Of a stretch of DNA of 64,000 nt, positions 46,491 to 56,647 are shown one piece after another. Where the stretch lies: NCBI RefSeq assembly GCF_013122565.1, contig NZ_CP053258.1, one strand, 5' to 3'. How positions within the stretch are numbered: position 1 is the first letter of the stretch; each line of letters begins with the position of its first letter. The stretch is from Escherichia coli (GTDB taxonomy: Bacteria > Pseudomonadota > Gammaproteobacteria > Enterobacterales > Enterobacteriaceae). Both the position numbers and the translations under genes were made by a program. The notes under the pieces are model-generated. The model did not search any database. It was not told the DNA's origin and saw nothing but the letters and a program-made list of their open reading frames with translations.

Positions 46491-46702
46491 GAGTTCCCCG
46501 CGCCAGCGGGGATAAACCGGCGATTATAGCGGACTTTCAAGAGAACAGTCTGAGTTCCCCGCGCCAGCGGGGATAAACCGTGGAAAATCACCGACAATAT
46601 TCGACATGGAGAGAGTTCCCCGCGCCAGCGAGGATAAACCGTTATCGGTCATCAACTATAGCGCGTATTTACTAAGTTCCCCGTTCCAACACGAATAATC
46701 CG
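46491..46702 (+). CRISPR. Type I-E CRISPR mini-array (CRISPR2-like): 3 intact repeats, 1 degenerate terminal repeat, 3 spacers of 32 bp
   Basis: Repeats gagttccccgcgccagcggggataaaccg at 46491, 46552 and 46613 (third has one mismatch). Degenerate repeat 46674..46702. Phase confirmed by the antisense artefact ORF 46379..46597. Confidence 0.95.
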
Positions 46703-51659: not shown

Positions 51660-52394
51660 ATGTCCAAACTCGATCTAAACGCCCTGAACGAACTGCCGAA
51701 GGTAGATCGCATTCTGGCGCTGGCGGAAACTAACGCCCAACTGGAAAAACTGGATGCTGAAGGCCGCGTTGCCTGGGCGCTGGATAATCTGCCCGGTGAA
51801 TATGTACTTTCTTCCAGCTTTGGTATTCAGGCGGCGGTGAGCCTGCATCTGGTGAATCAGATTCGGCCGGATATTCCAGTGATCCTCACCGATACCGGTT
51901 ATCTGTTCCCGGAAACCTACCGCTTTATTGACGAGTTAACGGACAAACTCAAGCTCAACCTGAAAGTGTACCGTGCTACCGAAAGCGCCGCCTGGCAGGA
52001 AGCACGCTACGGCAAACTGTGGGAGCAGGGCGTTGAAGGCATTGAAAAGTACAATGACATCAACAAAGTCGAACCGATGAACCGGGCGCTGAAAGAACTG
52101 AATGCGCAAACGTGGTTTGCTGGCCTGCGCCGTGAACAATCCGGCAGCCGCGCCAATTTACCGGTGCTGGCAATTCAGCGTGGCGTATTTAAAGTACTGC
52201 CGATTATCGATTGGGATAACCGAACGATATATCAGTATCTGCAAAAGCATGGCCTGAAATATCACCCATTATGGGACGAAGGATATTTATCGGTCGGTGA
52301 TACCCATACAACCCGTAAATGGGAACCCGGCATGGCGGAAGAAGAAACACGTTTCTTTGGTTTAAAAAGGGAGTGTGGGTTACACGAAGGGTAA
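51660..52394 (+). CDS. cysH: Phosphoadenosine phosphosulfate (PAPS) reductase
   Basis: 244 aa from [17 protein letters not shown]. The track ORF begins 51 codons upstream, inside the REP. Confidence 0.95.
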
Positions 52395-52658
52395 ATATTG
52401 CCGGATAAATTAAACGCCTCTGTCAGAAATGATGGGGGCGTTTTTATTTTGCGAGCAGCATTCCTGATTTTAAACGTGAACGCCGCTGGAAGAATTATCA
52501 GGTATAGAATGGCGTCGGGTGCTTGAGGCTGTCTGGCGTTAAGCATTCGCGAGGTTCCAGATGGACAAAAGCCCCAGGCGATATTTCTATCAACCTGAGG
52601 CTTACGTTCGAACCCAAACAATTCGAATGTTAGTCTCTTCTTTGCAGGGAGGCAAGAC

Positions 52659-52811
52659 ATGCTGACAAAATATGCCCTTGTGGCAATCATCGTACTGTGT
52701 TGTACAGTACTGGGATTCACGCTGATGGTAGGCGACTCGTTGTGTGAGTTGAGTATCAGAGAACGTGGTATGGAGTTTAAGGCAGTTCTCGCTTACGAAT
52801 CGAAGAAGTAG
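52659..52811 (+). CDS. Hok/Gef-family type I toxin (50 aa; below ORF-track cutoff)
   Basis: Translates to [50 protein letters not shown]. One TM helix and a conserved C-terminal SLCE...AYES.K block as in plasmid R1 Hok (from memory). SD agggagg 7 nt upstream. An overlapping upstream 34-codon ORF (52561..52665) ends 7 nt into hok, like a mok reading frame. Confidence 0.8.
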
Positions 52812-52814
52812 CCA

Positions 52815-52876
52815 CCACGCGGGGGTAAAACCCCGCGTACTGAATTGTGATGGTTTGGTCTCCTGCACCCTTTTTT
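52815..52876 (+). terminator. Structured 3' region and terminator of the hok transcript
   Basis: Hairpin acgcgggg-gtaaaa-ccccgcgt, then a T6 run at 52871..52876. Confidence 0.45.
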
Positions 52877-52879
52877 AAT

Positions 52880-53048
52880 TTATATTATTTATGTGAGTAT
52901 TATGCCTATGTTTATTATTTATATATATTACGGATGAAAATCATTTAATTATTCACAATGTAAATATTTTATTGAAAGATATATGTCACAGATAATTTTT
53001 AATATGTGCGTAAATATCCTTTAAGTTTTACTGAAGGATAAAAATATT
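52880..53048 (+). promoter_or_regulatory. AT-rich cas3 promoter region
   Basis: About 170 bp of very AT-rich sequence directly upstream of the cas3 start, typical of a nucleoid-protein-silenced cas promoter. Promoter elements not individually assigned. Confidence 0.4.
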
Positions 53049-54392
53049 GTGACTTTCTTTGATTTCTGGGGAAAAACCCGACGTGGCGAGAAAGAAGGGG
53101 GCGACGGCTATCACCTTCTTTGCTGGCATTCGCTGGATGTGGCCGCGATGGGCTATTTAATGGTTAAAAGAAATTGCTTCGGGCTGGCTGACTATTTTCG
53201 TCAATTAGGGATTTCTGACAAGGAACAGGCAGCTCAATTTTTCGCCTGGTTGCTGTGCTGGCACGATATTGGAAAATTTGCCCGCTCTTTTCAACAACTT
53301 TACCTGCCCCCTGAATTCAAGATTCAGGAAGGTGCCAGAAAAAATTACGAAAAAATCTCTCATTCAACGCTGGGCTACTGGTTGTGGAATCATTATTTAA
53401 GTGAATGTCAGGAGTTACTTCCTTCATCTTCGCTCTCTCCGCGCAAACTTAGGCGAGTGATAGAAATGTGGATGCCCGTGACGACAGGGCATCATGGTCG
53501 GCCCCCTGATCGTATGGATGAATTGGATAATTTTCTGCCTGAAGACAAAGCTGCAGCACGAGATTTTCTCCTTGAAATCAAACCACTGTTTCCGCTCATA
53601 GAGATCCCCGCATTCTGGGATGATGATGAGGGCATTGAACTTATAAAACACCTTTCCTGGTATATCTCTGCAACCGTCGTGCTCGCAGACTGGACGGGTT
53701 CGTCAACGCGATTTTTTCCACGCGTCGCACACCCAATGGATATTAAAGGTTACTGGCAGAAAACTTTAGTTCAGGCTCAAAATGCCTTAACCGTCTTTCC
53801 TCTAAAAGCAAAAGTCGCGCCTTTCACCGGAATTAATACGCTGTTTCCTTTTATTGAGAATCCGACACCGTTACAGCAAAAGGTGCTGGATCTGGATATC
53901 AGCCAGCCAGGGCCACAGTTATTTATTCTGGAAGATGTGACTGGCGCAGGTAAAACGGAAGCGGCGCTTATCCTGGCGCACAGGTTGATGGCTGCGGGTA
54001 AAGCGCAGGGTTTGTTTTTTGGCCTGCCAACAATGGCAACGGCCAATGCCATGTATGATCGGCTCGTCAAAACCTGGCTTTCTTTCTATTCGCCAGAATC
54101 TCGCCCCAGCCTGGTGCTGGCACACAGTGCCCGCACATTAATGGACCGCTTTAATGAATCACTCTGGTCCGGTGATTTAATCGGGTCAGAAGAACCGGAT
54201 GAACAAGCTTTCAGCCAGGGTTGTGCGGCCTGGTTTGCCGACAGTAACAAGAAGGCGTTGCTGGCTGAAATTGGCGTCGGCACCCTGGATCAGGCGATGA
54301 TGGCAGTGATGCCGTTTAAACATAATAATCTGCGGCTTCTGGGGCTGAGTAACAAAATCGTGTTCCCCGCGCCAGCGGGGATAAACCGATGA
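53049..54392 (+). pseudogene. cas3: Truncated cas3 (type I-E; HD nuclease domain and start of helicase domain only), fused to the CRISPR array
   Basis: 447-aa ORF with a GTG start. HD motif WHDIGKF and Walker A TGAGKTEAA. Collinear with the N-terminal half of K-12 Cas3 (888 aa, from memory). The frame runs through CRISPR repeat 1 (...NKIV|FPAPAGINR) and stops in spacer 1. Confidence 0.88.
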
Positions 54393-56647
54393 ATATTTGC
54401 GAATATTCGGCAGAAAGCGGGTGTTCCCCGCGCCAGCGGGGATAAACCGAGGTTGCGGCACAAATTGAGGTTGTCGCAAATGTGTTCCCCGCGCCAGCGG
54501 GGATAAACCGCCGACGCAGCAGCGGCAGCAGCGGCAGCAGCGGTGTTCCCCGCGCCAGCGGGGATAAACCGTGGATCAGTGCCGCGTTCTCTCTCCGTGT
54601 AATGTGTTCCCCGCGCCAGCGGGGATAAACCGATCGAGACGGGTACGCGTAAAGCCGAGCTGGCGTGTTCCCCGCGCCAGCGGGGATAAACCGCGATCGG
54701 TTAATTCTTCTACCTGCCTTTGCAGGTGTTCCCCGCGCCAGCGGGGATAAACCGCCCGCAATGCATTCGGGCAGTTCCTTGCCGGGGTGTTCCCCGCGCC
54801 AGCGGGGATAAACCGGAGATTGAGCCAGACGCCCGCCAGGTGTTACTGTGTTCCCCGCGCCAGCGGGGATAAACCGGAAGTAACACACCCAACCCAGGTT
54901 GCGCCAGAGTGTTCCCCGCGCCAGCGGGGATAAACCGCCTGTTTGAGCAGGCGCGAATGAACCGGACCAGTGTTCCCCGCGCCAGCGGGGATAAACCGTC
55001 AGGTAAGCCAGTGTTAGGGGCAATATAGCAGTGTTCCCCGCGCCAGCGGGGATAAACCGTCATCGGCTCGTTATTTGTAGCCAGCACTACGGTGTTCCCC
55101 GCGCCAGCGGGGATAAACCGCTTTATCAGATGGTAAAGGTGAATCAATATGAGTGTTCCCCGCGCCAGCGGGGATAAACCGATACCCCAGCGTTTCGTTA
55201 TATGACGGAAGATGTGTTCCCCGCGCCAGCGGGGATAAACCGTGCAACCAGGACGGCAGGACGCATCGCCAGATGTGTTCCCCGCGCCAGCGGGGATAAA
55301 CCGCACGTTATTATCCGATATTCACCGATAAGCGTGTGTTCCCCGCGCCAGCGGGGATAAACCGTCTGGGCGTAAACAGTCGGATAAATCGCGGGTGTGT
55401 TCCCCGCGCCAGCGGGGATAAACCGGCGGCGTGTGGGGTAACAATCAGGGAGAGAAAGTGTTCCCCGCGCCAGCGGGGATAAACCGGATAAATACAGTAT
55501 ATTCCCGCGCTCTGCTGGCGTGTTCCCCGCGCCAGCGGGGATAAACCGTAGATTTTGTCCGGCTCAGGTGCGCCGATGGTGTGTTCCCCGCGCCAGCGGG
55601 GATAAACCGATCGAGTACAACAAAAAATATACTGAGTGAGTGTGTTCCCCGCGCCAGCGGGGATAAACCGCTGTTTGCTCCTGCTGCTCATTTAGTGATT
55701 TAGTGTTCCCCGCGCCAGCGGGGATAAACCGCCTGTTCTTTTTTAGTCAACTTAACCATGCTCGTGTTCCCCGCGCCAGCGGGGATAAACCGTCTTTTTC
55801 GAGACTTGCAGCAACGCTCTGAAAGTGTTCCCCGCGCCAGCGGGGATAAACCGATCGAGTAGTTTTGAGGGTTGGTGAATTCAGGGTGTTCCCCGCGCCA
55901 GCGGGGATAAACCGCTTAATAAATGGACTTAAGCGCCCAGTATTGGGTGTTCCCCGCGCCAGCGGGGATAAACCGGGGAGGGCGAGCCGCCGTAGGTGCG
56001 GTGAGGGGTGTTCCCCGCGCCAGCGGGGATAAACCGACGCAGAAACTGGTTGAAATAGTTTACGGTGAGTGTTCCCCGCGCCAGCGGGGATAAACCGGCA
56101 GTAAATTATTTGACCTCGTTGATAATCCCGTGTTCCCCGCGCCAGCGGGGATAAACCGGTGGCGGTGTGATTGTGGGACTTATTGCCATCGTGTTCCCCG
56201 CGCCAGCGGGGATAAACCGGGCCTTTTCAGCAGATTAACCGCCGCGATTGCGTGTTCCCCGCGCCAGCGGGGATAAACCGAGAGATTTATATTCTTTCAA
56301 ACCGGATTATATCGTGTTCCCCGCGCCAGCGGGGATAAACCGCTTCAAGAATTTTTAAACGCTGGCTTCAAAATGTGTTCCCCGCGCCAGCGGGGATAAA
56401 CCGTCCCACGCGTGCCAGATGGCGCGTTTGATGGCGTGTTCCCCGCGCCAGCGGGGATAAACCGATGATAACGGCAAAGGGTACGCTACGTACAACGTGT
56501 TCCCCGCGCCAGCGGGGTTAAACTGTGATCCAGTGAGTACCGATCCGGGAACAACCGGTGTTCCTCGCATCAGCGGGGATAAACCGGGTGCACTGGATGC
56601 GATGATGGATATCACTTGGCGTTCCCCCGCCCCTGCGGTAGAACTCC
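54360..56647 (+). CRISPR. Type I-E CRISPR array: 37 repeat-spacer units plus a highly degenerate terminal repeat; no leader, no adjacent cas operon
   Basis: 29-bp repeat gtgttccccgcgccagcggggataaaccg with period 61. Spacers are 32 bp except one of 33 bp (55487..55519). Repeat phase verified against the antisense artefact ORFs ([10 protein letters not shown] / VYPRWRGEH / GLSPLARGT). Degenerate repeats at 56497, 56558 and 56619 mark the leader-distal end, next to iap. Confidence 0.97.

Follow-up and report, generated by a model that had tools for sequence, protein, structure and literature searches.

The cysH-adjacent hok locus of an Escherichia coli genome is probably a structurally intact copy of the known hokX/sokX type I toxin-antitoxin module

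Among the described systems closest to the locus considered here, hok/sok of plasmid R1 (parB) is the prototype; in it, translation of hok depends on the mok reading frame, whose own translation is blocked by Sok. The R1 paradigm reportedly goes back to Thisted and Gerdes 1992, Franch and Gerdes 1996, Gultyaev et al. 1997 and Pedersen and Gerdes 1999. On the chromosome, hok-family loci of E. coli include hokB/sokB of K-12, hokE/sokE and hokX/sokX, and a link with Obg and persistence is, to our knowledge, known only for HokB. In most E. coli, as in related genera, hokX/sokX is found immediately beyond the 3' end of cysH. The name hokX appears in a 2020 inventory, which places its first identification in E. 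coli B (PMC7232551). Almendros et al. 2014 listed a 'hok sok system' among the elements between cysH and cas3 and found it in every strain other than those whose cas genes are of the K-12 type (PMC3903273), and a 2025 survey reported the cysH-adjacent hok together with sokX in 90% of urinary isolates, the rest having sokX alone in a K-12-like state (PMC12736100).

We analysed a stretch of 64,000 nucleotides of E. coli DNA (contig NZ_CP053258.1), hereafter the window, in which a sequence-only reading had placed, between cysH and a cas3 stump, an unannotated type I toxin gene of the Hok family together with an antisense Sok partner. The gene family and the partner are borne out by a significant Pfam match, by a leader that clears the Rfam threshold by a wide margin and by homology to the annotated sokX of K-12. 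We estimate the probability at about 0.88 that this cysH-adjacent locus is the known chromosomal hokX/sokX (protein HokG), a type I toxin-antitoxin module, and that the window copy is structurally intact. The locus itself does not differ from hokX/sokX of E. coli: the protein and the position between cysH and cas3 are the same, and the 357-nt locus is 99.7% identical to that of many strains. What differs is the neighbourhood, where a truncated cas3 is fused to a CRISPR array.

Compared with hokE/sokE of E. coli, the protein is 80% identical (40/50), and the two loci share the architecture of the leader and a 3' GC hairpin that serves IS186/IS421 as an insertion site. However, hokE/sokE lies elsewhere on the chromosome, and its leader ORF is in frame with hokE, whereas that of the window is in another frame than hok and ends 7 nt inside it. 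The hokB/sokB locus is likewise chromosomal and of the hok family, with a protein of a different subfamily. With hok/sok of R1, the window locus shares the Hok/Gef toxin, the Rfam leader family, the tac-fbi closure and the Sok-target hairpin. Both loci also encode a short antisense RNA, the -35 box of which adjoins the hok ribosome-binding site. The window locus departs from the R1 arrangement in being chromosomal, in lacking a mok start within the 5' arm of its target hairpin, and in having fbi directly before the T-run rather than a separate terminator hairpin.

The locus at 52517..52876 is an ordinary, known feature that is already annotated publicly. The exact 50-aa peptide belongs to a cluster of 389 members found on at least 1000 public contigs, with the names "Hok/Gef family protein" and "Putative protein HokG, HOKG_ECO57", and it is identical to RefSeq WP_000956458.1 and UniProt HokG (HOKG_ECO57). 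RefSeq places a Hok/Gef CDS at the same spot in most complete E. coli genomes, EDL933 and BL21 among them, with 'Hok/Gef family protein' as its only product name, and leaves the Sok RNA without annotation in most genomes. Given the RefSeq annotation, the named protein and the papers on hokX/sokX, the finding in the window is real but already known; the description of the locus as unannotated was true only of the 60-aa ORF track used in the earlier reading. ORF tracks with such a floor overlook genes of Hok size. Beyond correct annotation the significance is small: in the window, a type I toxin-antitoxin locus described before is preserved intact, whereas it has been lost from K-12 and is disrupted by an IS in B strains. 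The elements of the locus are as follows, in window coordinates.

52505..52510, plus strand: TAGAAT, a putative -10 box for transcription of the hok mRNA, read from the sequence, 6 nt before the inferred +1 and with no good -35 box
52517..52876, plus strand: inferred full-length hok (hokX) mRNA of about 355-360 nt; 5' end from the start of the Rfam RF01794 match and the onset of conservation, 3' end from the fbi element and T-run
52517..52530, plus strand: 5' tac-like element GGGTGCTTGAGGCT, complementary to 52857-52870 at 12/14 positions
52561..52619, minus strand: SokX antisense RNA gene, 59 nt by homology, 56/59 identical to K-12 sokX b4701
52561..52665, plus strand: 34-codon leader ORF, with GAGG at 52551-52554 and its TGA stop inside ATGCTGA, 7 nt into hok
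52597..52637, plus strand: Sok-target (sokT-like) hairpin GAGGCTTACGTTCGAA-CCCAAACAA-TTCGAATGTTAGTCTC, the third hairpin of the Rfam consensus, present in every fold
52627..52655, minus strand: putative Sok promoter, read from the sequence as -35 TTGCCT (52655-52650), a 17-nt spacer and -10 TAACAT (52632-52627)
52627..52665, plus strand: 12-codon ORF, the 3' third of the 34-codon ORF, with the same stop
52647..52652, plus strand: hok Shine-Dalgarno GGGAGG, 6 nt before the hok ATG
52659..52811, plus strand: hok (hokX/HokG) CDS of 50 aa, from the ORF, Pfam, NCBIfam, RefSeq/UniProt identity and dN/dS
52818..52837, plus strand: GC-rich hairpin CGCGGGGGTAAAACCCCGCG, a conserved helix (alignment columns 307-313 with 322-328) that is intact in the window
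52857..52876, plus strand: fbi-like 3' element GGTCTCCTGCACCC (52857-52870) followed by T6 (52871-52876), from complementarity and recurrence

The 50-codon ORF that had been picked out at 52659..52811 is present there with exactly the translation quoted for it, and the strong Shine-Dalgarno ascribed to it is the GGGAGG at 52647-52652. Its product matches Pfam HOK_GEF (PF01848) significantly (E=6.3e-10, 38.9 bits), the match extending from the first to the last of the 42 model positions. The proposed single transmembrane helix and Hok C-terminal block are both apparent: the mean Kyte-Doolittle hydropathy is 2.76 over residues 6-24, the C-terminal half of the protein is polar, and the SLCEL and LAYE motifs are present, showing no variation across 19 relatives. 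This is the layout of the Hok/Gef family, with about 50 aa, one N-terminal transmembrane helix, and a polar C-terminus with a conserved Cys and AYE. Two NCBIfam models score under their curated cut-offs, namely the HokA equivalog (NF007290; E=2.6e-14, 53 bits against 89) and a Hok-family subfamily model (NF007279; E=3.6e-10, 39.5 bits against 73), from which it follows that the window protein is neither HokA nor a member of the narrower NF007279 subfamily. We found no toxicity test of HokX/HokG in the literature searched.

Relatives were collected by one DNA-pattern scan of species-representative genomes, which returned 114 loci, about a quarter of them unrelated chance matches or contig ends without a Hok ORF. 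From these, 19 hokX/hokE-type loci from about 7 genera (Escherichia, Pseudocitrobacter, Atlantibacter, Kluyvera, Klebsiella and Yokenella among them) were aligned. One genome hit considered as a divergent orthologue, H17 of strain D7, was dropped, its record being full of frameshifts. Linkage to cysH was also found in Pseudocitrobacter, in Atlantibacter, in E. whittamii and in two further Escherichia species; for E. albertii, cysH linkage holds for the leader, and the contig stops at the start of hok. The recurrence of this linkage in several genera indicates that the locus is old at the cysH position. In assemblies labelled Pseudocitrobacter faecalis and P. vendiensis (L033 2412-2769; L102 2025-2382), the cysH-hokX stretch is almost identical to that of E. 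coli, and scores for the final 120 aa of CysH are 644-647, where a self-comparison gives 650. This E. coli-like stretch suggests recent transfer or contamination.

The window allele of hok is identical in EDL933, E. whittamii and one further Escherichia species. Compared with 18 relatives, hok has a dN/dS of 0-0.2, and four Escherichia comparisons gave 0 non-synonymous against 3-5 synonymous changes, so that by these substitution counts hok is under purifying selection. A length of just 50 codons would also suit a chance open frame in intergenic DNA, an explanation with next to no probability: it is refuted by the Pfam and Rfam family matches, by the exact identity to a widely annotated protein, and by the dN/dS values.

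Upstream of hok, the leader DNA (52517..52674, plus strand) matches Rfam RF01794 (hok/sok) over the full model, positions 1-157, with 113 bits against a gathering score of 59; this family is named 'sok' and models the hok leader. The TAGAAT box that precedes it is kept in all cysH-linked orthologues, and the flanking upstream DNA is variable. A promoter scan with a cut-off of 9/12 called neither the hok nor the Sok promoter, since both score under that cut-off. Its only calls were the cysH terminator and one hexamer pair inside hok, the latter being disregarded (1 found against 1.9 expected). Rfam matches to ctRNA_p42d, the L20 leader and Spot 42 at 52333-52453 were likewise set aside, being far under their gathering scores and lying on the terminator hairpin of cysH; that gene extends to 52394, and its terminator occupies 52412-52452.

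Folding of the window RNA (52517-52873) gave a minimum free energy of -129.8 kcal/mol, with a z-score of -4.66 against shuffles. In both the MFE and the centroid fold, the 5' GGGUGC..GAGGCU pairs with the 3' GGUCUC..GCACCC, the long-range tac/fbi pairing that the sequence-only reading had proposed to look for. GCACCC followed by a T-run recurs at the fbi position in nearly all of 24 hokX/hokE-type loci, and in 19/19 aligned sequences this GCACCC pairs with columns 1-6, the 5' side being fixed by the search pattern. The 5'-3' closure is thus present in 19/19 relatives with the 3' side alone free to vary; the DNA-pattern search fixed the first 19 nt of every relative, and covariation on the tac side is for that reason not assessable. 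When the last 35 nt of the mRNA were removed before folding, the 5' end refolded into a local hairpin and the Sok-target hairpin stayed, and this predicted refolding after 3' removal is the kind of switch described for R1.

The predicted fold also involves the hok ribosome-binding site. In the consensus fold of the 19 sequences, the Shine-Dalgarno pairs with the LAYE-coding stretch (columns 136-146 with 276-285, 99% paired) and UCUCUUCUUUG, upstream of it, pairs with the last hok codons; the ribosome-binding site is accordingly modelled as sequestered in a conserved mRNA fold. The same consensus keeps the 5' stem, the complement of the Sok terminator hairpin, the Sok-target hairpin and the 3' GC hairpin. 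Overall, 97.5% of alignment cells are paired in a consensus structure derived from the same 19 sequences that were used to score it, 11 pairs show compensatory changes, and 0/500 shuffles were as good; a control with the pairing partners slid gave 35-47% paired. In the Sok-target hairpin, compensatory changes occur at columns 97:113 and 98:112, and the loop is complementary to the SokX 5' end. A second long-range pairing, between the Sok-target loop (CCAAAC/ACAAUUC) and 52841-52856, was rejected because it fails in alleles with a changed loop and an unchanged 3' partner.

At the 3' end, the structured region and T-run noted earlier correspond to the GC hairpin at 52818-52837 and T6 at 52871-52876. 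In this hok subfamily the T-run (alignment columns 357-366) follows fbi directly and has no local hairpin, so that the only stem ahead of it is the long-range 5'-3' pairing.

The antisense partner was predicted to lie on the minus strand near the mok/hok start, and K-12 had been said to have a sokX sRNA in this intergenic region. Both statements proved accurate: K-12 sokX is annotated there as an ncRNA (b4701, NC_000913.3), antisense to the cysH direction, and maps to 52619..52561 on the minus strand of the window, where homology points to a Sok gene. The ends of SokX were taken from the K-12 annotation, and the three differences from K-12 all fall at 52602-52604. The folded RNA consists of a short 5' tail, a long stem-loop and then UUUUGU (-24.7 kcal/mol, z -4.5). 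Seven nucleotides separate the putative Sok -10 box from the SokX 5' end; the promoter matches 8/12 consensus positions, and both hexamers show little or no variation among the 19 relatives. Of the minus-strand promoter and terminator that the earlier reading had proposed to look for, the TTGCCT/TAACAT hexamers and the stem-loop with UUUUGU are in place, but the promoter was not called by the scan. At the level of sequence, identity, hexamers and fold together indicate a cis-encoded Sok gene overlapping the leader. RNA-seq and Ribo-seq data from EHEC list 'sok_15/sokX' among transcribed regions with low ribosome coverage (PMC5331693), a weak indication that the sokX region is transcribed in a strain with an identical Hok protein.

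Within Escherichia, the 140-nt leader is invariant except at 52602-52604, 52614-52619 and 52626, a set of differences that includes a 1-nt indel. This variable patch coincides with the SokX 5' tail and with the loop and upper stem of the target hairpin, and is therefore a likely recognition determinant.

The suggestion that the leader contains a frame arranged like mok held only in part. The 34-codon ORF exists at 52561..52665 and overlaps the start of hok, but it is not conserved and the leader has no canonical mok start. In other hokX alleles the same ATG opens an ORF of 6, 18 or 23 codons that stops 25-77 nt before hok, and the 34-codon ORF was rejected as a conserved mok on this ground. 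Its ATG is lost outside Escherichia and the cysH-linked Pseudocitrobacter loci. In the window this ATG, at 52561, is covered by the 3' end of SokX; within a stem, its T is paired with column 15, and the pair covaries as GU/AU/UA/GC. Klebsiella relatives have an in-frame mok-type ORF from +91, for which the window equivalent is TCG at 52608-52610, and the mok-equivalent frame of the window has no start codon after the TGA at 52596.

Two observations keep the mok idea alive. In hokE, the ATG homologous to window position 52561 opens an 83-codon ORF in frame with hokE, and the 12-codon ORF is conserved, being present in 20/22 hokX/hokE-type loci examined (7 genera), without a Shine-Dalgarno. The latter conservation may be a by-product, as the ATG of the 12-codon ORF is the reverse complement of the Sok -10 box. 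It is a doubtful suggestion that the E. coli hokX lineage represents a natural case of mok-less or mok-variable hok/sok control. If hok translation is coupled to a leader frame, 34-codon alleles such as that of the window would be inducible and shorter alleles silent; if control is indeed mok-variable, the variable Sok 5' tail and target loop would set which Sok controls which hok.

The missing canonical mok start, together with a leader ORF of 6, 18, 23 or 34 codons according to the allele, also raises the question of whether the locus is a silent relic, intact in sequence, from which Hok is never made after loss of the mok frame and which persists since its deletion is neutral or rare. We consider this unlikely. 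The purifying selection apparent in hok (including the four Escherichia comparisons free of non-synonymous change) and an mRNA fold maintained by compensatory changes across about 7 genera are not expected of a relic. In its favour, Pedersen and Gerdes 1999 are cited in the 2020 inventory as having found the five hok loci of K-12 non-functional (PMC7232551), and loss of the locus appears to be tolerated, as the following comparison of genomes indicates.

A copy covering 80% or more of the 357-nt locus was found in 4,146/5,426 complete E. coli genomes (~76%), with best matches 99.7% identical. Copy states were read from 60 evenly spaced records: 37 were full, 9 break at window position 52833, 13 retain only 52517-52661, and 1 has only the first 41 nt. 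The break at 52833 thus affects about 15% of the sampled genomes and the hok body is lost in about 22%, frequencies that speak for tolerated loss. The outcome that would have spoken against the locus, an ORF disrupted in most strains with no conserved antisense partner, was not seen: most genomes have the ORF intact, and the antisense region shows conservation. In K-12, identity to the window ends right after the hok ATG, so that the leader alone is kept and only sokX (b4701) is annotated. In BL21 the break at 52833 lies inside the GC hairpin and adjoins an IS421 (IS4-family) transposase gene. The GC hairpin at 52818-52837 is a hot spot for insertions of the IS421/IS186 type in other strains, and the window copy is free of both the K-12 deletion and the IS421 insertion.

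In strain 118C_1_fosA3, hokX, IS421 and hokE are arranged tail to tail and convergently (L003 3430-4800; L004 3300-5300). This order suggests that the chromosome has inverted between IS copies located at two hok loci.

For the preferred reading of an intact hokX/sokX module, the dynamic steps of control are modelled on hok/sok of plasmid R1, as worked out by the Gerdes laboratory. By this analogy, the full-length hok mRNA would be stable, untranslatable and closed to Sok. Slow trimming from the 3' end would take off fbi, upon which the 5' end of the mRNA would refold. The unstable SokX would then attach to the hairpin loop (52611-52619) of the trimmed mRNA, which would be cleaved by RNase III and destroyed. 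Once SokX is exhausted, trimmed mRNA would be translated into Hok, in this lineage with no conserved mok frame. Hok would enter the inner membrane and collapse the membrane potential, leading to cell death or dormancy.

As for what such a module would be kept for, its chromosomal location and constant place across genera are a poor fit to stabilising a mobile element. They suggest, by analogy, a physiological role instead of gene stabilisation, either as a HokB-like membrane depolariser in stress and persistence or as a module for abortive responses to phage. This interpretation, which draws on hokB/sokB and on phage exclusion by hok/sok, is possible at odds below even; against it, the sequence gives no hint of a specific inducing signal.

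Downstream of the hok 3' end, a spacer of 172 nt with 19% G+C (52877-53048) leads to the start of cas3 at 53049 and is presumably the cas3 promoter region. The cas3 stump placed beyond hok was confirmed: it comprises 447 codons, and identity to full-length cas3 ends near 54362. The position of hokX/sokX directly beside cas3 would suit an addiction module that guards the neighbouring type I-E cas genes from deletion, and its presence has been found to correlate with the cas-E1 variant and with cas-less strains, not with the E2 variant (PMC3903273). We regard such a guarding function as highly improbable. In the window the cas genes are deleted from mid-cas3 to the CRISPR leader and hok is still there; the module lies outside the deleted segment and would be unable to punish that deletion. 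BL21 similarly keeps hok without having cas genes, and linkage to cysH across genera is found irrespective of cas.

A type I-E CRISPR array follows the cas3 stump directly, from 54360 to about 56586 (the whole feature spans 53049-56586). It contains 35 exact and 2-3 degenerate copies of GTGTTCCCCGCGCCAGCGGGGATAAACCG at a spacing of 61 nt. The genes from cse1 to cas2 and the array leader are missing, and a search of 5,426 complete E. coli genomes found the cas3-CRISPR junction in none. There is also a small second CRISPR array at 46491-46700, about 1.4 kb upstream of cysJ; it comprises three good repeats and one degenerate repeat of a variant beginning GAGTTCCCC, preceded by an AT-rich, leader-like stretch.
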